A stretch of 47,402 nucleotides of DNA from a virus (IMGVR_UViG_2531839180_000006); one strand, 5' to 3'; shown: positions 1 to 42,603, counted from the first letter of the stretch. The notes: a model not told the origin generated them from the sequence alone. A program made the numbers and translations.

Positions 1-235
1 TCAATAAATCCCATCATTGCGATCAACCTCATCCTTAACCATTGATGCGAGCAGTTCTTCCAGTTTCTGCGCTGACAGCTTTACCTGGTGATCTTCAGCA
101 TCTTCCCGGGCTATTGTGGTTCGCGCAGTGGCTGATTTTGCTGACATCACCACAGGGGGCAGACGGACCATTGAACCAGGGCCTCCGGAACAAATAAGGG
201 CAAAAATAACAACCACTATCGAAAGCTCACAAACT

Positions 236-406
236 AACCGCAGCACGTTCCTGCATACGACGTGTCTGCGGCATAATCCCAATGATTACTCCCTGACAGG
301 ATTTGCAGGCCACTCAATATCAGGTGCAGTTGATGTATCAACACGATTCAACAATACCCGATATTTATTCCATGCCTCCAGCAACGATCTTTCTTCCTCC
401 GTTGCG
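236..406. repeat. Direct repeat copy 1 (~170 bp): 3' end of tfa plus a hairpin; ~85-90% identical to 1286..1456
   Basis: By-eye alignment of 236-406 with 1286-1456 (shared 'ccgcagcacgttc...cataatcccaatgattactccctgacagg...'). Confidence 0.8.
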
Positions 407-555
407 ATTTCCAGATCTACAGCATCCTGCAGTGGCGCAATATACTCACTGAATTCCTGGATGTAGAACTGTGTGGTGACGGTCTTCCAGCCATTCGGCT
501 CCTGCTGTATCGAAGCATACCAGGCTATTTCAATATCGCTATGCTGCGGCAGCAT
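286..555 (-). CDS. tfa: Tail fiber assembly protein (Tfa) homolog, C-terminal half only (89 aa); possibly a truncated remnant
   Basis: C-terminus '[46 protein letters not shown]' matches lambda Tfa C-terminus; SD AAGGGG before ATG; N-terminal half of a full Tfa is missing. Confidence 0.65.
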
Positions 556-623
556 TTAACCCCTTGTAATTCATCGCCATAATTGATTTAATTCACAAAT
601 AAAACTATAACATGGTGAAATTA

Positions 624-1280
624 ATGAAAAAAAACACAGATGATGGGGCTAAAATTTACACACCACTTACCCTAAAGCTTTATGACTGGTGGGTTTTGGG
701 AGTATCAAATCGGCTTGCATGGGGATGTCCTACAAAGGAACACCTTCTTCCACACTTTCTGGAACATTTAGGTAACAACCATCTGGATATTGGTGTTGGA
801 ACTGGGTTTTACCTTACTCACGTACCTGAGAGTAGTCTGATATCTTTAATGGATTTGAACGAAGCTAGCCTGAACGCGGCATCTACAAGGGCTGGGGAAT
901 CAAAAATTAAACATAAAATTAGCCATGATGTTTTTGAACCTTATCCCGCGACGTTACATGGTCAATTTGATTCCATTTCCATGTTTTACCTTCTTCACTG
1001 CCTGCCTGGAAATATATCTACAAAAAGCTGTGTAATACGCAATGCGGCGCAGGCCTTAACTGACGATGGAACTCTATACGGAGCCACAATTCTTGGCGAT
1101 GGAGTTGTGCACAATAGCTTCGGTCAAAAACTGATGCGCATTTACAATCAGAAAGGCATCTTTTCAAACACAAAAGATTCCGAAGAAGGCTTAACACATA
1201 TACTCTCAGAGCATTTCGAGAATGTTAAAACCAAGGTTCAAGGTACTGTAGTAATGTTTTCCGCTTCAGGGAAAAAATAG
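624..1280 (+). CDS. Class I SAM-dependent methyltransferase (cargo gene; alternative start at 612)
   Basis: Motif I 'LDIGVGTG' in a Rossmann-like context; AT-rich relative to flanking phage genes; opposite strand to tail genes. Confidence 0.7.
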   Translation: MKKNTDDGAKIYTPLTLKLYDWWVLGVSNRLAWGCPTKEHLLPHFLEHLGNNHLDIGVGTGFYLTHVPESSLISLMDLNEASLNAASTRAGESKIKHKISHDVFEPYPATLHGQFDSISMFYLLHCLPGNISTKSCVIRNAAQALTDDGTLYGATILGDGVVHNSFGQKLMRIYNQKGIFSNTKDSEEGLTHILSEHFENVKTKVQGTVVMFSASGKK

Positions 1281-1285
1281 CATCC

Positions 1286-1456
1286 AACCGCAGCACGTTC
1301 TTGCTTAAGACGTGCTGCGGCATAATCCCAATGATTACTCCCTGACAGGGTTCACAGGCCACTCAATATCAGGTGCAGTTGATGTATCAACACGGTTCAG
1401 CAACACCCGATACTTTTTCCAGGCTTCCCGCAACGAGGTTTCTTCCTCCGTTGCAT
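1286..1456. repeat. Direct repeat copy 2 (tfa 3' end plus hairpin)
   Basis: Near-identical to 236-406 in the same orientation. Confidence 0.8.
1288..1320. terminator. Hairpin (11-bp perfect stem CCGCAGCACGT/ACGTGCTGCGG) between convergent methyltransferase and tfa fragment; possible bidirectional terminator
   Basis: Perfect inverted repeat read directly; T6 run on minus strand ~10 nt downstream. Confidence 0.4.
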
Positions 1457-1463
1457 ATACAGC
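1335..1463 (-). pseudogene. tfa 3' fragment (42 codons of Tfa C-terminus, preceded by in-frame stop, no start codon)
   Basis: Minus-strand translation gives '...[37 protein letters not shown]' bounded upstream by TGA at 1464-1466. Confidence 0.6.
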
Positions 1464-1790
1464 TCACCTTTTTTCACCCACGATTAACCAACAGCCAGAC
1501 CAGCAGACACGCCACCACCGGCACAGCAAAATCCATCAGGCTTGCCACATCCCACACGCGTGGATCAAAACCGCCCCACCACGGCATATTCATACGCTTG
1601 CCATGTCCGAACATTTCAATCCAGCGATATTATGCCTGGGGTGTTCAAGCGCAATGAAGTACGTATTGTATCTTCGCGATTTTTTATAGGCTAATTGACG
1701 CGCAATTCTGAGCGGGGAGCGCACAATCAAACAGCACAGAATGGATCGCTGATATTTATCCTTTTGTCGGTTTATCAAACAACAAGAGAG

Positions 1791-3620
1791 TCAATAGCGG
1801 ATTGTCCCTACATCCATTTCTGGCGAATCCACTAACCAGAAATTATCTGGCTTTACAGCCAGAATGATCCAGGCAGTGTTTGTTGTTGATGACCAGGAAG
1901 GCAGCACATCGTATGCCGGGTCATCGCAAGAATCACGATAACCGTACTCATTAAAAAGTGGAGCCATTGCTGCCACAAGATTCACCGCATTCAGCTCATT
2001 ACCCAGCTTGCGCTCAAAAAGTGCCACACCTGCCGTTCCTTCCACCCACACGCCACGGCTGTGACCACTATAACCATAATCAGGGTGGTACGGTGTGTAA
2101 CCCGTGGTTTCCCTCGTACCAAATAAAAAACGCCCCATATATTTTCGGCACTTAGCCGCTTTCTCAGCATCAATATTGGCAACAAACAATCCGCCCCAGG
2201 AAGACTGATCCAGCGCCGCTGCGTTGTCATAGTGGGTTGAATGAACCCCCTGTCGAAATCGGCCTTCATCTTCCACCCACAGACCTCTGATGATGCTCTT
2301 TGCCAGCCTGTCAGCCCGCTCACTGAAACCGTCAAATCCCAGCCGTCCCATCAGTTCAAACAAAAACCAGATATCAACGTTATGCTCCAGTGCGCACCAT
2401 TCGGCGACAAAAGTTTCATCAAAATTGCCGTCCACATAACGCCCCTGCCCCCCTTTATACAGGCCTTCACGCAGGTCGCCTGGTGTGCTCACCAGAAAAG
2501 TATCCAGCCAGGCAATGCCTGCCAATAGCTTTTCTCTGACCCGCGCAGTCTGAGTACCGTCCGGATACTTCTCCAGATAGAAAGCAAGAGCATAATAAAC
2601 CCATGCCGCATTGCCCAAGCGGTAATAGGTACGCGGTGACATGGCAGACAGCCTGTTAACAAAAAACTTTACTCCACCGTTTTCATCAACAAGCGCACAC
2701 AAGCCCGCAACGTATCTTTCTACAGCCTCATGTCGCTGAACCATCAACGCCAGTGCTGCCAGCGCCTGGTCATACGTGTAACACCGATCTTTCATCACCC
2801 TGATCACTTCGGGGTCTGCGTCCTCCGGCATCCAGTAGCTACGAATGAGCAGTGGAAACTCCAGCGTTGTGATCCACGCATTATCCTCAATCCGAATAAG
2901 ACGAAACTGTTTTGCTCCCGTCCAGCAACGTCTGAAATAGAAAGTTCCGTCACTATTCAAATTAGCGTCGCCGTTAAAATACTCTCCGGTTGTATAAGCA
3001 TACATATCGACTTTATACTTTTCAGGTTCAGGAATATCGCAATATCCGTTAACTGCACCGACATAATTAAAATCGATATTTTCTTTTATTTTTAAAGATA
3101 TTGATGTATTAACAACCTCGGGTTGTTCCAGTTTTAACATTGCAGTAGTGCAACGACTCACGATGTCGTCAAAGTTCTCAAAGCGCAAACCGGGAAAACT
3201 ATCGGCTATTCCCTGCATTTCAGACAGTAACGCTTCTGCCCTTTTTGTCGCTGATATTGCCACATCTGCACTTCGTTGCGCCTGACTTGTCAAATCTTCA
3301 AATCGTTTCACCACATCTGGCTTCAGGTCGCCTTCGTCGGGGGCAGTCAGAAAATCATTCAGCGTACCTGGTCTGGAACCTTCATAAACGGTAATGGTCC
3401 CGGCATGTGAAGGCGGAAAACCTTCAACCAACAGGGTGACGCTGTACTGACCATACTCAACATCCATGCTGTAACGTCCAGCTTCATCCGGATTTTCTGA
3501 GGCCACCGTGTTCACCACAACCGTTGTGCTGTTACGTTTTGCCTTCAGTTGAATAGTGCAGTTCTGTATTGGTTTTCCCGCACCATCTTTCAGCACACCT
3601 GAGATTTTTACTGCTGCCAT
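1791..3620 (-). CDS. stf: Side tail fiber protein: lambda Stf-like N-terminal anchor (~90 aa) fused to a large non-lambda C-terminal domain
   Basis: N-terminus 'MAAVKISGVLKDGAGKPIQNCTIQLKAKRNSTTVVVNTV...GTLNDFL' matches lambda Stf N-terminus; the remainder lacks lambda Stf Ala/Ser-rich repeats. Confidence 0.8.
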   Translation of the reverse strand: MAAVKISGVLKDGAGKPIQNCTIQLKAKRNSTTVVVNTVASENPDEAGRYSMDVEYGQYSVTLLVEGFPPSHAGTITVYEGSRPGTLNDFLTAPDEGDLKPDVVKRFEDLTSQAQRSADVAISATKRAEALLSEMQGIADSFPGLRFENFDDIVSRCTTAMLKLEQPEVVNTSISLKIKENIDFNYVGAVNGYCDIPEPEKYKVDMYAYTTGEYFNGDANLNSDGTFYFRRCWTGAKQFRLIRIEDNAWITTLEFPLLIRSYWMPEDADPEVIRVMKDRCYTYDQALAALALMVQRHEAVERYVAGLCALVDENGGVKFFVNRLSAMSPRTYYRLGNAAWVYYALAFYLEKYPDGTQTARVREKLLAGIAWLDTFLVSTPGDLREGLYKGGQGRYVDGNFDETFVAEWCALEHNVDIWFLFELMGRLGFDGFSERADRLAKSIIRGLWVEDEGRFRQGVHSTHYDNAAALDQSSWGGLFVANIDAEKAAKCRKYMGRFLFGTRETTGYTPYHPDYGYSGHSRGVWVEGTAGVALFERKLGNELNAVNLVAAMAPLFNEYGYRDSCDDPAYDVLPSWSSTTNTAWIILAVKPDNFWLVDSPEMDVGTIRY

Positions 3621-3637
3621 ATCCACCCCACAAAAAA

Positions 3638-4341: not shown

Positions 4342-7300
4342 TCAGCTAATCGTGATGCCTGCAGTGGCTTTCTTCATCACAACAACCAGCAAATCGCTGA
4401 TACTTGCTGTGGGATACCAACCATTTACCCACCATGCTGATACAGAAAACTCCAGTGTCATTACGCCACTGCCTGCAGGCATATCAATAACACCCGTGTA
4501 TATCAGCGTATTATCCAGAGCCGTTCGGTTATAAATTTCAGCCCCGTTTTTCTTCACTATCAGGCGGCATGACGAATAAGTATCGCTATTCTCCCGCTCA
4601 TGTCTGGCACCGCTGAAAGCCACCGCAGGAATAACAATTTGCCGGTCAAACGGCTGATCGTCATAAACCCTGACGGTAATGGTCCCTGATGGCCACCGCT
4701 CCGGTGCACGGGAGTCCCGGGGGAAAGCTTTGCCCACTGTTTTAACGAGATCGCCTTCAATCTGGTTCGCGGACAGTTTTCCCAGAACCCGACAGTTCTC
4801 GTTAATCGTGACGTTGTTGAGCGTCCCTGAATTTGCATTCACATTACCGCTGATATCCGCATTTTTAGCGGTCAACTTTCCGTCCGGTGTCAGGGAAAAT
4901 GCCGGCGGATTTCCACCGCTGGTAATGGTGGGAGCCGTCAGGCGTTTCAGGAACACGTCGTTCATGAATATCTGGTTGCCCTGCGCCACAAACATCGGCG
5001 TTTCATTCCCGTTTGCCGGGTCAATAAACGCGATACGATTGGCGGCAACCAGAAACTGGCTCAGCTTGCCTTCCTCCGTGTCCTCCATGCTGAGGCCAAT
5101 ACCCGCGACATAATGTTTGCCGTCTTTGGTCTGCTCAATTTTGACGCCCCACATAGCATTCCATTTATCGTTAGCGTCCTTCCACTCTTTCGAAAACTCA
5201 TCCAGTCTGCTGGCGTTATCCTCCGTCAGGTCGACTTTTTTCAGCAGCTCTTTACCGAGATGGGATTCGGTTATCTTGCCTTTGAAAAAATCCAGGTAAC
5301 CTTCCGCATCATCGCTCGCCCGACCGACGGCCTCCACGAATGCCGATTTGCCAACGGTGTTCACACTGCGGATATAAAAGTAATAATCATGGCCCGGTTT
5401 GATATTGATACTGGCGGCTATCCAGTACAGCGCCGTACCAAGATAGCGGGCTGTGGTTTCAACCTGCCTGATATCGGTAATCCGCTTTTCCGAGAACCAG
5501 AACTCAAACTGTACCGTCGGGTCATAAACAGCAAGATGCGGCGTGGCGGTTATCTGAAAATAGCCCGGCGTCAGCTCAATCCTCGACGGTGCTGCCGGTG
5601 CGGCAATCCGGAACGATACCGATGCCGGATCGCCCTGCTGCCCCCACGCATTTACTGCCCGGACTGTCAGCCTGTAGTTCCCCAGAGCCAGTTGTGTGAA
5701 GCGGTAAGTGGTTTCCGTCGTCCGGGCCGTGCTGACCAGCCGCTCACGGCCGTCATCCGCTGCCACGGTCAGGCGAAGCAGGAAGCTCACGCCCTTCACC
5801 ACCTTCGGCGTGTCCCAGCGGGCCAGCACCTGGTATTCCCCGCTGTCTGCGGTGACTTCTGCGGTCAGGTGCTGCACCGCTGGCGGCGTGACACCATTTA
5901 CCGTGCCGCTCTGGTCGCCGTCAAAGTGCGCCCCGTTATCCACGATGGCCTCTTTTTCCGGTACATGCTGCACGGCAGTGATGGCATACGTGCCGTCGTC
6001 GTTCTCACGGATACTCACGCAGCGGAACAGGCGCTGGCGCAACGTCGGCAGCTTCAGCCCCCATACGCTGTATTCAGCAACGCCGTCAGGAACACGGCTC
6101 ACTTTCACCTTCACGCCGTCGGTGACGGACTGAACCTCCACGCTGACCGGACTCCCCTGCCCGTCAACCAGGCTTATCAGCGTGGTACCGGAGGATGGCA
6201 GCGTGATTTCACGGTCGAGCGTCAGCGTCCGGGTCTGGCTGTTCACCGCCAGCACACGACCACCGGTGCTGATACCGGCATAGTCATCATCACAGATTTC
6301 AATAACATCGCCCGGCACATGGCGAAGCCCTTCTGCGCCCACGCTGAAGTCCACGGTCTGCGTTTCCAGCAGTTCTGTTTTAATCAGCCACAGCCCGGCG
6401 CGGTGTGCCTGCCCCCGGCTGGTACAGCCAAAAGCATCCATCTTCGTGACGTTACGACCGTAACGGGCAATAGCCTGCGTATCCTCCACAAGCTCTGTCG
6501 CCGTCTCCCAGCCGTTGTTCGGGTCAATCCAGTTCACCTCAACGGCATTATGGCGGTCCTTCAGGGCGCTGAAGCTGTAGCGGAACGGCGCGCCATCATC
6601 CGGCATCACCACATTACTGCGGTTATAGGTCCACACCTTATCTGATGGTCGGTCCTGCACGAACGTCAGCGTCTGCCCGTTCCATACCGGCATACAGCGC
6701 ATCGCCGAGCAGAAATCACTGAGCACATCCCACGCCTTACGCTGCGTGGTCAGCCAGGCATTACAGGTGATGCGCGGCTCCGTGCCGCCAAAACCGTCCG
6801 GCACCGACTGGTCGCAGTACTGGCCGATGACATACAGCGCCCATTTATCCACATCTGCCGCACCAAGACGTTTCCCCATGCCGTAGCGCGGATGGGTCAG
6901 CATATCCCACATACACCAGGCCATGTTGTTGCTGTATGCCGGTTTAAACGTTCCGTCCCAGATACCGCTGTATTGCCGCGTCTGCGGGTTATAATTCGAC
7001 GGCACCTGCAGAATACGCCCGCGCAGATGATAATTACGGCTCACCTGCTGGCTGCCGAACTGCTCCGAGTCCACCTGCACGCCGAACAGTGCCGTGTTCG
7101 GGTAGCACTGTTTCACATCGATGATTTCGGTGTATGACGACCAGAGCGTTTTGTTCTGCAGCTGGTCTGTGGTGCTGTCCGGCGTCATTCTGCGCATCCG
7201 GATATTAAACGGGCGCGGCGGCAGGTTATCCACCACCACCGAGGCCAGATACTGCGAGGTGGTTTTGCCCTTAATGGTGATGTCTTTTTCCGTCACCCAG

Positions 7301-27650: not shown

Positions 27651-27685
27651 GGAGTTTACTCACATCTGACAAAATCAATATAAAC

Positions 27686-27705
27686 AGCCCCTCCGGAGAG
27701 GGGCT
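27686..27705. terminator. Perfect hairpin AGCCCCTC-CGGA-GAGGGGCT downstream of the 111-aa ORF and of the tRNA cluster; possible bidirectional terminator
   Basis: 8-bp perfect GC-rich stem with tetraloop read directly. Confidence 0.4.
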
Positions 27706-27939
27706 GGAGAGTGGCGCTATGTGCCATTGCATGGTGCCGGGTGCCTCCCGGTGAATTCAGTACCAGCACCTGAATCCGCGATTATCCCATATACCTACTC
27801 GCTGATTGCCCCTCCGCACAGGGGGATTCACCATGCCAGTTTCTTTTAACAAACTCCCCGCAAACCAGACAACAGTCAACCGCCTGAATTGTGAGACATT
27901 TAAAAAAAGCCCGCAAAAGCGAGCCAAGGAAAATAAGTG

Positions 27940-28016
27940 TGGCGCGTTGTACTGGATTCGAACCAGTGACCGATTGCTTAGAAGGCAATTGCTCTGTCCG
28001 GCTGAGCTAACAACGC
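27940..28016 (-). tRNA. argO: tRNA-Arg (anticodon UCU), argO-like
   Basis: Minus strand GCGTTGTTAGCTCAGCCGGACAGAGCAATTGCCTTCTAAGCAATCGGTCACTGGTTCGAATCCAGTACAACGCGCCA folds as a canonical cloverleaf (7-bp acceptor, TTCGAAT T-loop, CCA). Confidence 0.85.
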
Positions 28017-28029
28017 AGGATACAGATAA

Positions 28030-28106
28030 TGGACCGCCTTCGGGGACCCGAACTCCGCGCAACCAGCTTCGAAAGCTGGCGCTCTTTCCTGATGAGCTAA
28101 TGGCGG
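28030..28106 (-). tRNA. argN: tRNA-like, probable tRNA-Arg (anticodon UCG by eye), argN-like; non-canonical pairs, possibly degenerate
   Basis: CCGCCATTAGCTCATCAGGAAAGAGCGCCAGCTTTCGAAGCTGGTTGCGCGGAGTTCGGGTCCCCGAAGGCGGTCCA: cloverleaf possible but A-A mismatch in acceptor stem, A-C mismatch in T-stem, G at position 58. Confidence 0.55.
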
Positions 28107-28113
28107 TATGTGA

Positions 28114-28189
28114 TGGTGGCCCTTGCTGGATTTGAACCAGCGACCTGGCGATTATGAGTCGCTCGCTCTCACCACTGAGCTAAAGGGCC
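28114..28189 (-). tRNA. ileZ: tRNA with anticodon CAU (Ile2/lysidine type, ileZ-like; formally Met/Ile)
   Basis: GGCCCTTTAGCTCAGTGGTGAGAGCGAGCGACTCATAATCGCCAGGTCGCTGGTTCAAATCCAGCAAGGGCCACCA; closely resembles E. coli tRNA-Ile2; perfect acceptor stem, TTCAAAT T-loop. Confidence 0.85.
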
Positions 28190-28238: not shown

Positions 28239-29288
28239 TCAAACGATTAAATCCTGAACTTCCCTGACTGTCTGCTCAAAACGTCCGGTCTCCAGCTCAA
28301 CACCAATCGCACGACGCCCCAGTGCCATCGCCGCTTTTACCGTTGAACCCGACCCCATGAAAAAATCCGCAACCAGATCACCAGGACGACTACTTGCGCT
28401 GATTATCTGCTGCAGCATTTCTGCCGGTTTTTCGCACGGATGTTTCCCTGGATAGTGCTGCACCGGTTTATGCGTCCAGACATCGGTGTACGGAACCTGC
28501 GCCGTCACACCGAAATACCGCCGCAAATTTTTATATTCACTCAGCAGTTCCGTATACTGCCGGTTCAGCTCACTGTATGTGCTGACCAGCTGGTGGTGTG
28601 GCTTTTCCAGTTCCCCGCGCTGATGTTTTTCTGCCGCAACACGCGCAAACAACGCCTGCAATTTGTTGTAATCACCCTCGTTCGGTAACTGCCACTGACT
28701 GGTACCAAACCAGTGCGAAGCCATGTTTTTCTTTCCGGTGGCTTCCGCTATCTGTTTTGACGTTATTCCCAGTGATTTACGCGCATCACGAAAGTAAGAA
28801 ATCAGCGGGGCCATGACGTGCTGTTTTAGCTCGCGCCCCTGCTCCACATAGCCATCATCTTTCGGGCGATACGGTCCCTGATAATGTTCTGCAAACAGAA
28901 TGCGCTCTGTTGCCGGAAAATACGCCCGCAGACTTTCCTTATTGCACCCGTTCCAGCGTCCGGACGGCTTCGCCCAGATAATGTGGTTCAGCACATTAAA
29001 GCGCTCACGCATCATGATTTCGGTGTCAGATGCCAGGCGATGACCACAGAACAGGTAAAGACTTCCGGCAGGCTTCAGTACCCGCCAGAACTGCGCCAGA
29101 CACTGGTCCAGCCATTTCAGGTAATCATCGTCGCCCTCCCACTGGTTATCCCAGCTCTCGGGCTTCACTTTAAAGTATGGCGGGTCTGTGACTATCAGAT
29201 CGACAGAATTTTCCGGTAAGGTCTGGATAAATTCCAGGCAATCAGCGTTGATTAACTCACAACTGGATATTTTTACAGTATTGGCCAT
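28239..29288 (-). CDS. Orphan DNA methyltransferase (N6-adenine/N4-cytosine amino-MTase; DPPY motif IV followed by FxGxG motif I)
   Basis: 'LIVTDPPYF' near N-terminus and 'DFFMGSGST' near C-terminus; no adjacent restriction endonuclease candidate. Confidence 0.85.
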   Translation of the reverse strand: MANTVKISSCELINADCLEFIQTLPENSVDLIVTDPPYFKVKPESWDNQWEGDDDYLKWLDQCLAQFWRVLKPAGSLYLFCGHRLASDTEIMMRERFNVLNHIIWAKPSGRWNGCNKESLRAYFPATERILFAEHYQGPYRPKDDGYVEQGRELKQHVMAPLISYFRDARKSLGITSKQIAEATGKKNMASHWFGTSQWQLPNEGDYNKLQALFARVAAEKHQRGELEKPHHQLVSTYSELNRQYTELLSEYKNLRRYFGVTAQVPYTDVWTHKPVQHYPGKHPCEKPAEMLQQIISASSRPGDLVADFFMGSGSTVKAAMALGRRAIGVELETGRFEQTVREVQDLIV

Positions 29289-29855: not shown

Positions 29856-30599
29856 CTAATCTGACGTCACACGCACCATTATACTTACTAAAGAAAAGTC
29901 ATCATCAGGTCCGGCTCTCTCTATACGACGCAAAATGCCATTAGAAAACTTCTGACTATTACTCATCGTATTTGATGTAAATCTGGGGCGTTTTTCCCAA
30001 ACGTTATGAACCCCATCAGACATGATACACAGATGATATACCCCGTTAATACTAGGTAAATCTTTCCATGTGATAAAATCACAGTCGTATTCCATATCAA
30101 CATTTGAGGCTATAGCCGTCGTTAAGATATTTTTGCCCGGTTTATCCTTCAAATCTCTGGGTTTAAAAATATTCTGATCAATTAGCATCTGATGCCTGGT
30201 ATCGTCCTTCGTCAATTGGTATGCTTTCTTCTCTCCAATGCAATACAAACGACAATCACCAATATGACCAATAATAATTCCGCTATCACAAACATAACAA
30301 AACGTAAGTGTAGTAGCAGCTTTATCGAACTCATCATTAACATCAGCTAACGACATAACCTTTCGCTTAACTTCATCAAATACATCCGGAACTGTGTCAA
30401 AAGATAAGCTTGTCAATGCTGAAAGCTCAGCAATTGCCATTGATGAAGCCTGACTGGCACCAGTGTATGAACCTACACCATCAGCTACGGCAAATAAGAT
30501 GCCATCCCCTACAATTTTGGGAGGAAGCAATGAATCTTCGTTGACCCTACCTGGTTCTTTTGGATACGAGAATGATGAAGTCGCTATCAGCTGAATCAT
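29856..30599 (-). CDS. PP2C-family (PPM) Ser/Thr protein phosphatase
   Basis: PPM motifs 'NEDS', 'FAVADGVGS', 'GDCRLY', 'MSDGV', 'DDDFS'; start overlaps kinase stop (ATGA); AT-rich. Confidence 0.8.
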   Translation of the reverse strand: MIQLIATSSFSYPKEPGRVNEDSLLPPKIVGDGILFAVADGVGSYTGASQASSMAIAELSALTSLSFDTVPDVFDEVKRKVMSLADVNDEFDKAATTLTFCYVCDSGIIIGHIGDCRLYCIGEKKAYQLTKDDTRHQMLIDQNIFKPRDLKDKPGKNILTTAIASNVDMEYDCDFITWKDLPSINGVYHLCIMSDGVHNVWEKRPRFTSNTMSNSQKFSNGILRRIERAGPDDDFSLVSIMVRVTSD

Positions 30600-31361
30600 G
30601 ACTCACTCCTTAAAAAAGAATGCACAAAATCAAACGCCACATCATCTATTGTCTGATATCTATCATCTTTATCCATCCTGGTACACTTCGCTATGATAGG
30701 CTTTATTTTTTTATCATCTAAATTTAAGTCCTCAATTAACCGCCCCACCGCATAAACATCAGTCTTAACTGAATACTCGGCATTATATAAAATCTCGGGA
30801 GCCATATATCTTGTACTTCCCATACGGGTACCGATCTCGGTCAATTTAGTGGTATCCCCTTCGGGATTTGTATCTTTTACCAGACCAAAATCAGACACCT
30901 TGTATGTTCCGTCGCTAAATCGCAAGACATTAAATGGTTTTATATCTCTGTGTAAATAGCCTTTCGCATGGATGTGAGCTACACCATCTAATACCATTTT
31001 CACTATTGAAATTTTTTGATCTGTTGTAAGAAGGTTGTTCGTTATTTCGTGCTCAAGATCACATTCTGCTTTATCCATAATGAACCATGGATTCTCGGCA
31101 AACAAATCGCACAAATAAATAGGAACAATATTGCTATGTACGCAATGTGATTGATACACGACCTCCCTTTTAAAACGCCTTCTAAACTGCTCTATTTGCG
31201 CCAAAAGCTCTGGTTTTTCGGGGGCTAAAACCTTTCTAGCATAATCCCCACATTCACCCTTGTTGAGGTTGTAAACCTTAACGTGTTCAACAAAGCCAAA
31301 TGCACCTCTTCCAATCAACTGAATTCGTTTTATAAAGTAATTACCGTGCTGTTCTTCCATT
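30596..31361 (-). CDS. Eukaryotic-like (Hanks-type) Ser/Thr protein kinase
   Basis: Gly-loop 'GRGAFGFV', 'YARKVL' lysine, catalytic loop 'HRDIKPFN', 'DFG', 'MAPE'; AT-rich; start MEEQHG chosen. Confidence 0.85.
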
Positions 31362-31378
31362 AAGCTCACCGACCTAAA

Positions 31379-31403
31379 TTGTAAGAATATCCATATCTTA
31401 CAA
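31379..31403. promoter_or_regulatory. 25-bp palindrome TTGTAAGAATATCCATATCTTACAA immediately upstream of the kinase RBS; operator-like
   Basis: Perfect 8-bp arms TTGTAAGA/TCTTACAA read directly on the plus strand. Confidence 0.4.
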
Positions 31404-31433
31404 CTACAGATAAAAAGGTCCACAGAGTTAAGC

Positions 31434-31458
31434 AAAAAACCCGCATTTAAGCGGGTTT
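31434..31458 (-). terminator. Intrinsic terminator downstream of the Q-like gene (AAACCCGC-TTAAAT-GCGGGTTTTTT on minus strand); candidate tR'
   Basis: GC-rich stem followed by U6 run on minus-strand transcript. Confidence 0.6.
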
Positions 31459-34443: not shown

Positions 34444-34599
34444 TTACTCTCTAGATTCGTAGTCTACGAAAACAGCAACCTCCGTCTGGCCGGTTCGGAT
34501 TCGTACCTCGCAGAGGTCTTTCCTCGTTACCAGTGCCGTCACTATGACGGTTAAACAGATGACGATAAGGGCGATTAACATCGCCTTTTGCTGCTTCAT
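34444..34599 (-). CDS. hok: Hok-family type I toxin (HokD/RelF-like membrane peptide)
   Basis: 'MKQQKAMLIALIVICLTVIVTALVTRKDLCEVRIRTGQTEVAVF' matches Hok/Gef family; AAGGAG SD; in-frame upstream extension (to 34656) may be mok-like. Confidence 0.85.
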   Translation of the reverse strand: MKQQKAMLIALIVICLTVIVTALVTRKDLCEVRIRTGQTEVAVFVDYESRE

Positions 34600-35025
34600 A
34601 GCCTGCTTCTCCTTGCCTTTCGGCACGTAAGAGGCTAACCTACATTTGTGAGACATAGATTGGGCCTCAGATTAATGTTAAGCGTCTTGCAGGACGCGTA
34701 ATGTTAACTGGGGCTTTTCTCTATCTGCCTTTTGGTGTTCATGCCTGAGACAGATAGCCTCAAGCACCCGCAGCAATTCTACTTAACTCTCCTTTTCCCG
34801 CAAACCGTTTTTATCCTCAACGTAAATTTTACCAATATTGCCTAACACATCTCCCTTGCCCTGACGATGCTTACCTCTTTACACAGACCCAAATTTATGT
34901 ATTATCTTTTACAAACAAGCAGTTAAGAGCTATCGGTGGGTGAGTTCGCCCTGCGGTAGCTTTTCCTTTATGCATTGCATCTATTTATGTTCTAGTATAT
35001 TCCTATATGTTCAAAAGGACTTTTC

Positions 35026-42086: not shown

Positions 42087-42603
42087 AAACACTCCTTTTT
42101 ACTGTGGAAAGCTAAATCATATCACGGTCTATGAAGTAAAAAGTGAATTTCGTGATGCGGTGAATGCGGCTCAGCGCACGCAGAACAGTTAAAAACACAA
42201 GTGTTATGGGTGAATCATCCGGCGTTAATTGTTAACTGGTTAACGTCACCTGGAGGCACCAGGCACCGCATCACAAAGTTCACTTAGGTGATGAAAGGTA
42301 GAGAAAATGTTGAATGTAGCTATTGAAAACCAGAACGGGTGGAATTATAGTGCACCTGCACCTCATAAAACGGGTGCCGGGCGTGGAAACCCGATGTTCA
42401 CTAACGCGCATAATCGCGCTCAGGCGGTTTTTTTATGCGTAATGCACAGCCACATTCAGATTATGGTGGGACGTGCAGGGCAGCCGCAAGGCTGGCCGGG
42501 TTCGTTAGTGACCGGTATTTCCACCCCTGTACGTCTCACCACCCTTATGGTCGTGGAAAACCTTGGTGGTGAGTTAATCAAATTCACTAACGAGGCTGCT
42601 ATC

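Follow-up and report, generated by a model that had tools for sequence, protein, structure and literature searches.

The ybcY methyltransferase gene between two tfa 3' ends in an Escherichia coli lambdoid prophage

The stretch analysed, IMGVR_UViG_2531839180_000006 (47,402 nucleotides, referred to below as the window), is an Escherichia coli lambdoid prophage whose tail-fibre end abuts a remnant of ompW beside trpA-yciGFE; xis and int lie at the opposite end of the prophage. Close to the window start is ybcY, a gene for a methyltransferase dependent on S-adenosylmethionine (SAM), which is bracketed by two 3' ends of the tail-fibre assembly gene tfa (Table 1). Beyond the tfa pieces are a minus-strand tail-fibre open reading frame (ORF) at 1791..3626 (611 aa) and then lom and J, and ybcY is convergent to this late operon. 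Region 1..235 lies in the last few hundred prophage bases, ahead of the ompW remnant, and its bases 214-235 match the sequence immediately past the tfa hairpin in phage PhiR49_2. The 3' remnant of ompW was found ~300 bp past the window start, just outside it (remnant area at 5572-5697 of the occupied-locus extract), so the prophage sits in ompW, next to trpA-yciGFE. The DUF4376 fragment just inside the prophage end spans window 1-282 (-) and contains an internal stop.

Table 1. Features of the ybcY locus in the window, with position, strand and the analyses behind each assignment.
Feature	Position	Strand	Basis
Decayed DUF4376 fragment and native tfa-downstream sequence	1..235	-	PGAP annotation of a genome that matches window 1-1800 at 100% identity
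Direct repeat copy A: tfa 3' end, stop 286-288 (-), hairpin 238-271	236..405	.	Repeat search, alignment, blastn, folding
35-bp run identical to 1315-1349	266..300	.	Alignment with the methyltransferase-less variant
Tfa relic A: 58 C-terminal codons (Tfa residues 137-194)	286..462	-	Pfam, tblastn, PGAP
N-terminal 31 codons of an unrelated small phage gene, in frame with relic A	463..555	-	PHROG profile and sequence comparison
AT-rich (26.5% GC) ybcY upstream region	556..623	+	GC, promoter-hexamer search, K-12 comparison
ybcY, intact 218-aa stand-alone class I SAM-dependent methyltransferase (PHROG 2132)	624..1280	+	Pfam, PHROG, homologue alignment, AlphaFold, K-12 match
Direct repeat copy B: tfa 3' end, stop 1335-1337 (-), hairpin 1288-1320	1286..1454	.	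Repeat search, alignment, blastn, folding
Tfa relic B: 39 C-terminal codons and stop, start-less	1335..1454	-	Pfam, tblastn, PGAP pseudogene
Small gene downstream of stf (phrog_1443/34165), frameshifted	1474..1724	-	ORF list, PGAP, PHROG

An earlier reading of this stretch, made from the sequence alone (the sequence-only reading), placed an 89-aa ORF at 286..555, a start-less tfa piece at 1335..1463 and the methyltransferase at 624..1280 (+). All three positions were confirmed, the first two features being on the minus strand and the tfa piece ending at 1454 or 1463. Its claim that the flanks are genuine tfa 3' ends was also borne out. Relic A covered positions 75-130 of the 131 in the Pfam Caudo_TAP profile and was 87.9% identical to residues 137-194 of the Tfa of phage PhiR26_1 (window 462-289, tblastn), and PGAP labelled it as missing its N-terminus. 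Relic B covered profile positions 95-130 of 131 and was 94.9% identical to residues 156-194 (window 1454-1338). When the intact 194-aa PhiR26_1 Tfa was used as the tblastn query, no N-terminal half of tfa was found in the entire 47-kb window. No functional Caudo_TAP (lambda Tfa-type) protein of ~190 aa with an N-terminal domain is therefore encoded there, and the statement that tfa is split did not survive, only residues 137-194 and 156-194 being present.

The 89-aa ORF (phrog_2341) had been taken for a Tfa C-terminus, which was correct for its 58 C-terminal codons and not for its N-terminal ~31-37 residues. These derive from an unrelated gene of the phrog_3893 type, which is 79 aa long in Klebsiella phage Kp4882-3, and the joint lies at 462/463. 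The ORF is a chimera, probably left by illegitimate recombination. On the other side of ybcY, relic B begins 20 bp past the stop codon of the phrog_1443 small gene, with a different kind of stf module upstream.

The repeat search returned two pairs of direct repeats, 266-405/1315-1454 (140 nt, 91%) and 236-264/1286-1314 (29 nt, 90%), one base out of register. Alignment with MAFFT merged both into a single repeat, 236-405 versus 1286-1454, with one 1-nt indel. The two copies were 90.0% identical over 170 columns (blastn, E 1e-61), a similarity far above chance expectation, so the proposed direct repeats, each with a tfa stop and a hairpin, are real, although their limits fall at 405 and 1454 rather than at 406 and 1456, and in copy A the tfa homology runs on to 462. 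Both hairpins were GC-rich. Hairpin B, which starts just beyond the 6 bp that follow ybcY, was strong (-24.2 kcal/mol on the plus strand, -28.5 on the minus strand, z about -5); the corresponding values for hairpin A were -17.9 and -24.1 kcal/mol. No Rfam match at the gathering threshold was obtained within window 1-2000.

For comparison among genomes, the cassette was defined as the 730 bp of window 556-1285, of which bases 1281-1285 (CATCC) are also native tfa-downstream sequence. The same arrangement is annotated in the DLP12 prophage of E. coli K-12, where the order is tfaD (b0561), ybcY (b0562, a pseudogene on the opposite strand), tfaX (b0563), appY and ompT. Window 309-1454 aligned with K-12 in one contiguous block at 97.1% identity, the cassette matched the b0562 region at 99% nucleotide identity, and gene order, orientation and promoter hexamers were the same in both. 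The main difference in the K-12 cassette is the loss of 2 bp at the ATG/A8 tract, which makes ybcY a pseudogene there, whereas the gene is intact in the window prophage. The two loci also differ at their sides. On the B side, tfaD is intact (187 aa) in K-12, whereas the window has the 39-codon relic joined to a different tail-fibre module; copy A in the window keeps its own stop and hairpin, and beyond it comes the prophage end at ompW, where K-12 has appY-ompT.

The cassette was searched for in 5,426 complete E. coli genomes at a threshold of at least 95% identity. It was present in 3,836 of them (~70%), at 4,882 places and in up to four copies per genome, and 3,268 of these places were at least 99% identical. 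In 3,066 genomes a tfa 3' end came immediately after the 3' end of ybcY. A tfa piece adjoined the 5' side of ybcY in ~2,618 genomes, a count that is approximate because the 80% coverage threshold also admits copies in which the repeat is limited to 331-405. In 454 genomes, 80% or more of window 1-1800 occurred in one place. Because the arrangement is already annotated in K-12 and is present in ~70% of complete genomes, the locus is of the known DLP12 tfaD-ybcY-tfaX type and is ordinary. In protein clusters the intact 222-aa form of YbcY was dominant (6,589 member sequences), and truncated variants also exist. Short contigs labelled as Bacillus sp. and Planococcaceae metagenome-assembled genomes carried ybcY 99-100% identical to that of E. 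coli, together with tfa pieces, and are almost certainly E. coli contamination of those bins.

Between the repeats, the cassette was 99-100% identical across phages and K-12. Copy A was 98.7-100% identical to the A copies of other phages over 331-405, and most other B copies (at the tfa 3' ends of PhiR26_1, 2G7b and K-12) matched copy B at 96-98%, whereas A and B were always 85-90% identical to each other. Since A and B are ~10% apart while the cassette is 99-100% conserved, the comparison points to two old, separate tfa alleles, probably inherited with the cassette, and not to a recent duplication. The earlier suggestion that the cargo was acquired by duplication within tfa finds no support in the same figures, nor in the joint at copy B, which exists without ybcY in PhiR49_2.

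The unit common to every context examined was window 331-1320 (~990 bp), with limits set by phage Turner. On the B side, this unit was joined to an intact tfa (PhiR26_1, phage 204576, K-12), a relic (the window, 2G7b, ev243) or the hairpin alone (Turner). The A side was of two types, leading either into a native tfa 3' end with its hairpin (the window, 204576 and, in part, K-12) or into an alpha/beta hydrolase, OmpT and int (2G7b, ev243, PhiR26_1, Turner). In the free phages 2G7b, PhiR26_1, Turner and ev243 the cassette leads an accessory cluster of ybcY, a tfa relic, a 494-aa alpha/beta hydrolase, OmpT and int, of which the hydrolase-OmpT part was lost from, or was never in, the window prophage. 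The joint of small gene, relic B and hairpin without ybcY was found in PhiR49_2, where native tfa-downstream sequence runs on past the hairpin (…CACTATCGAAAGTTCACCATCC). From this continuation it follows that the ybcY stop (1278-1280) abuts native tfa-downstream sequence at 1281.

An in-silico junction, window 1-235 joined to 1286-1800, was used as the query against E. coli genomes. It was matched along its whole length at 99.3% by four records, which belong to the sheep strains ECL27977 and ECL27829; the match lies at the trp-yciEFG-ompW prophage end, as in the window, and holds a single repeat and no methyltransferase. The single repeat of ECL27977 was of the A type at all four differences left of 266 (the 1-nt indel included) and of the B type at every difference right of 300; its hairpin portion is thus of the copy-A type and the remainder of the copy-B type. 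This places the crossover within the 35-bp identical run 266-300/1315-1349. A single chimeric repeat is the outcome predicted by homologous recombination between A and B, and the two strains bear out the proposal of the sequence-only reading that such recombination would delete the methyltransferase precisely. Compared with the occupied locus, ECL27977 was 99.45% identical along 6,405 bp of left flank and 97.06% identical along 3,742 bp of right flank. A different event was found in phage Ayreon, in which the equivalent of window 586-1244 is missing through an internal deletion whose junction shows a 4-nt overlap (4746-5100 of the Ayreon locus extract), and the last ~36 nt of ybcY remain beside its promoter region. 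This is an independent loss route in which the tfa repeats were not used.

The gene itself matched phrog_2132 over profile positions 1-218 of 218 (E 2.9e-156); the PHROG function label is unknown, and the PhiR26_1 record names the same gene YbcY. A longer ORF, 612..1280, is present, and the homologue alignment together with the PHROG profile, which starts at residue 5 of that ORF, place the start at ATG 624. A Shine-Dalgarno sequence, GGTGA, precedes this codon at 615-619. The GC content was 26.5% upstream of ybcY and 40.9% in the coding sequence, compared with 50% for the window and 48-51% for the flanks. Two sigma-70-like hexamer pairs were found in the upstream region, TTAACC-16-CATAAT (556-583) and TTGATT-17-TATAAC (583-611). 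The second is listed for ybcY, in the ybcY/tfaX spacer and with an H-NS mark, in a table from genomic SELEX with K-12 RpoD (PMC3946193). At these hexamers K-12 and the window were identical. The coding sequence begins with ATG followed by A8 (624-634), exactly where the 2-bp deletion of K-12 falls, and from its sequence this homopolymer could be a slippage-prone on/off site.

Relatives of ybcY at 50-70% identity were lone chromosomal genes in Enterobacterales (Enterobacter, Yersinia, Erwinia), Pasteurellaceae, Pseudomonas and Xanthomonadales. No tfa was found near these relatives; tfa flanks occurred only with copies of at least 99% identity in Escherichia, Shigella and E. albertii. The gene neighbourhoods in Enterobacter, Yersinia, Erwinia, a plasmid-like Salmonella context and Klebsiella had nothing in common. 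At the Enterobacter chromosomal locus, nucleotide homology extended over window 562-1251 (the start being approximate), which suggests that ybcY was captured together with its upstream region. A candidate link between YbcY and the alpha/beta hydrolase encoded beside it in phages was rejected, as this hydrolase and the carboxylesterase next to the Erwinia homologue are unrelated (BLASTP E 0.87).

The assignment of the product of this AT-rich gene to the class I methyltransferases, made in the sequence-only reading, was upheld. Four Pfam profiles were passed at their gathering scores: Methyltransf_12 (37.6 bits, cut-off 30), Methyltransf_23 (27.8, cut-off 27), Methyltransf_25 (27.6, cut-off 27) and Methyltransf_11 (24.3, cut-off 21.2), and a SAM-binding profile was thus present. 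Motif I (LDIGVGTG, residues 54-61) and the acidic residues D77 and D102 were invariant in 41 homologues, as were an N-terminal YDWWV helix and an HCLPG motif that are specific to the family. Across Enterobacterales and Pasteurellaceae ~57 residues were invariant. The AlphaFold model built from the 41 homologues (mean pLDDT 91.8) had a seven-strand Rossmann-like class I fold with an N-terminal helical cap. The top Foldseek matches (TM-scores 0.55-0.68) were juvenile hormone acid methyltransferase, phosphatidylethanolamine N-methyltransferase, phosphoethanolamine methyltransferases, C-methyltransferase domains of polyketide synthases, SgvM and NodS, and the best match in a profile search of solved structures was again juvenile hormone acid methyltransferase (E 4.5e-6). 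YbcY resembles juvenile hormone acid methyltransferase (7EC0), phosphatidylethanolamine N-methyltransferase (8YS9) and UbiG (4KDR) in fold, in motif I and in a length of ~200-260 aa with no extra domains, but is only 12-21% identical to them, and no specific family stands out. In NCBIfam the only matches, to CpaM, RquA and PmtA, were far below cut-off.

The 218 residues of YbcY contain no (D/N/S)PP(Y/F), no PP dipeptide and no PCQ, the marks looked for in N6A, N4C and C5 DNA methyltransferases. No DNA methyltransferase family of Pfam was matched, and a protein of this length has no room for a target-recognition domain. A search for defence systems with PADLOC returned only an insignificant match to mad2. 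By the fold comparisons, YbcY is placed among the small-molecule or lipid methyltransferases, apart from the DNA methyltransferases, and would be a lysogen-expressed enzyme of that kind.

We favour, at a probability of roughly 80%, the reading in which the locus is the far end of the tail operon of an ompW-integrated lambdoid prophage, carrying the widespread ybcY as a moron between two tfa-allele relics. The layout fits two standard concepts, morons and the mosaic exchange of tail-fibre and tfa modules. The moron concept is said to come from Juhala, Hendrix and colleagues, with lom and bor of lambda reportedly among the examples. Like the morons of lambdoid phages, ybcY is an extra gene that is absent from relatives, with odd base composition, promoter-like signals, a direction independent of the late operon and a likely benefit to the host. 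Its neighbours are otherwise adjacent, since PhiR49_2 and ECL27977 show the same context of small gene, tfa relic and hairpin without ybcY, and its base composition deviates from that of the flanks. These AT-rich bases, its own promoter-like hexamers and its single-gene chromosomal relatives across the Gammaproteobacteria fit a moron, and the view of the methyltransferase as cargo in the sequence-only reading agrees with its being AT-rich and transcribed against the tail operon. It differs from the usual case in being bracketed by relic repeats of a neighbouring phage gene, a trait outside the definition of a moron, and in that its private terminator is only putative.

Haggard-Ljungquist (1992) and Sandmeier (1992) reportedly described how lambda, P2, Mu, P1 and T4 exchange tail-fibre and tfa modules in a mosaic fashion. 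As in those phages, the conserved C-terminal coding sequence of tfa is here the homology shared in the swap, with different stf modules upstream of the same tfa 3' end. The difference is that here the outcome of the exchanges is a tandem pair of tfa 3' ends enclosing cargo, whereas the lambda/P2/Mu/P1/T4 type is a clean replacement. As the junctions compared here show, the conserved tfa 3' ends act as homology patches at which crossovers bring the cassette together with different tail-fibre modules at one end and different accessory regions at the other, and an unequal or intramolecular crossover between A and B removes the cassette cleanly. For the origin of the cassette, we suggest that ybcY was captured from a gammaproteobacterial family of chromosomal genes and was then joined to tail-fibre modules by illegitimate recombination, of which the chimeric 89-aa ORF and the truncated relic B would be scars. 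In the lysogen, YbcY would be produced from a sigma-70 promoter of its own that H-NS probably damps. With SAM as methyl donor, the enzyme would act on a metabolite that is small and probably hydrophobic, on a lipid head-group or on a xenobiotic. It would thus be an enzyme of lysogenic conversion, with no part in virion assembly or DNA modification.

Several observations weigh against this favoured reading. When the flanking ORFs of 72 loci were clustered, no neighbour gene was kept across genera, and conserved neighbours were seen within Pseudomonas only. The SELEX promoter was assigned in K-12 from computationally chosen hexamers, and its -10 element would leave a leader of only ~5 nt before ATG 624. 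On the ybcY strand, a canonical U-tract is missing after both hairpins, which leaves a private terminator for ybcY putative. The direction of the event in ECL27977, loss or gain by the reverse crossover, is not provable from sequences, and because its right flank is only 97% identical, this strain is not a recent derivative of this exact prophage.

The notion that ybcY is a functionless passenger, common only through the commonness of DLP12-type remnants and lambdoid prophages, is in keeping with the pseudogene in K-12, the truncated variants in the protein clusters, the internal deletion in Ayreon and the fact that ECL27977 lost ybcY or never had it. We consider it unlikely, because the intact 222-aa form dominates with its 6,589 members, ~57 residues are invariant and some genomes hold up to four copies. 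It is distinctly improbable that YbcY methylates nucleic acid or belongs to anti-phage defence or counter-defence: it has neither a catalytic motif of that kind nor room for target recognition, the PADLOC match was insignificant and there is no partner gene, while its homologues are lone chromosomal genes and its top structural neighbours are enzymes acting on small molecules or lipids.

A single tfa split by insertion of the methyltransferase, with ~170 bp of tfa duplicated in the process, would account for the direct repeats of the tfa 3' end that bracket ybcY and for the restoration of one copy by recombination between them. That history is nevertheless very improbable in view of the missing N-terminal half, of repeats that have diverged by ~10% around a cassette conserved at 99-100% across contexts, of the relic B and upstream small gene that exist in PhiR49_2 without the cassette, of the fusion of relic A to a fragment of an unrelated gene and of the bare hairpin on the B side in Turner. 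Insertion of a transposable element with target-site duplication was rejected as well, the repeats being 170 bp long and 10% diverged and neither a transposase nor terminal inverted repeats being found at 556-1285. Alternative tfa copies are also typical of invertible host-range switches of the Gin/Cin/Pin type, and Turner has a DNA invertase ~1.1 kb from the cassette; the tfa ends might then be remains of such a segment with the methyltransferase merely inside it. This we regard as extremely improbable, as the repeats are direct and not inverted, the annotation of the closely related E275a prophage shows no invertase and both tfa pieces are without a start and without a partner fibre tip.

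Within the favoured reading, the resemblance of YbcY to phosphatidylethanolamine N-methyltransferase and juvenile hormone acid methyltransferase suggests a more specific and quite speculative idea, for which we see only a slim chance: YbcY may serve in lysogenic conversion as an overlooked enzyme, methylating a host lipid head-group or a hydrophobic small molecule and thereby changing envelope chemistry or detoxifying a gut metabolite. If so, the effect would be felt in the ~70% of E. coli that carry ybcY, and would have been overlooked because the K-12 copy is a 2-bp-deleted pseudogene, which is probably also why YbcY has been little studied. In the literature searched, ybcY received only incidental mentions (the RpoD SELEX table, the gene context of ompT and a mutant without an Hha phenotype), and nothing relevant was found on tfaX/tfaD, methyltransferases among lambdoid morons or the PhiR phages. 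As a discovery the locus carries little weight, being of an annotated type with parts that follow standard ideas. Its value lies in the natural chimeric A/B junction, by which the relic tfa repeats appear as real recombination substrates that gain or lose the cassette, and in an intact, highly conserved prophage methyltransferase that is present in most E. coli genomes and a pseudogene in K-12.

Among the neighbouring genes, the small gene at 1474-1724 is intact (97-99 aa) in phages 2G7b, ev243 and PhiR49_2 and has a hydrophobic C-terminal stretch; in the window only its 46-aa C-terminal half is left as an ORF. If the phrog_1443 product is a fibre chaperone, side fibres may not assemble in the window prophage. 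The stf ORF at 1791-3626 (-) is itself intact, with an N-terminus of the lambda phage_tail_N type. Its C-terminal 475 aa matched only the PHROG tail-fibre families 13714, 4128 and 7032, with no Pfam match, and in the near-identical E275a genome PGAP annotates only the stf N-terminus, as a pseudogene. A "glucosidase family protein" label lies under the match in the stf area of one other genome, and the stf tip may be enzymatic.

Elsewhere in the prophage, Rfam matches at the gathering level were obtained for the small RNA STnc100, the sok antitoxin (beside hokD), isrK and the C4 antisense RNA, at 27676-27865 (-), 34594-34769 (-), 42358-42546 (+) and 27943-28189 (-), and for three tRNAs, annotated as Arg, Arg and Ile in E275a. 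A separate 349-aa ORF at ~28239-29288 (-) is annotated as a DNA methyltransferase in the E275a relative, and a pair of ORFs at ~29856-31435 (-) as a Ser/Thr kinase and a PP2C phosphatase. Coordinates in the window drift from those of NZ_CP035865 beyond ~3.6 kb, which indicates that the window prophage is a mosaic relative of the NZ_CP035865 prophage from a different strain.

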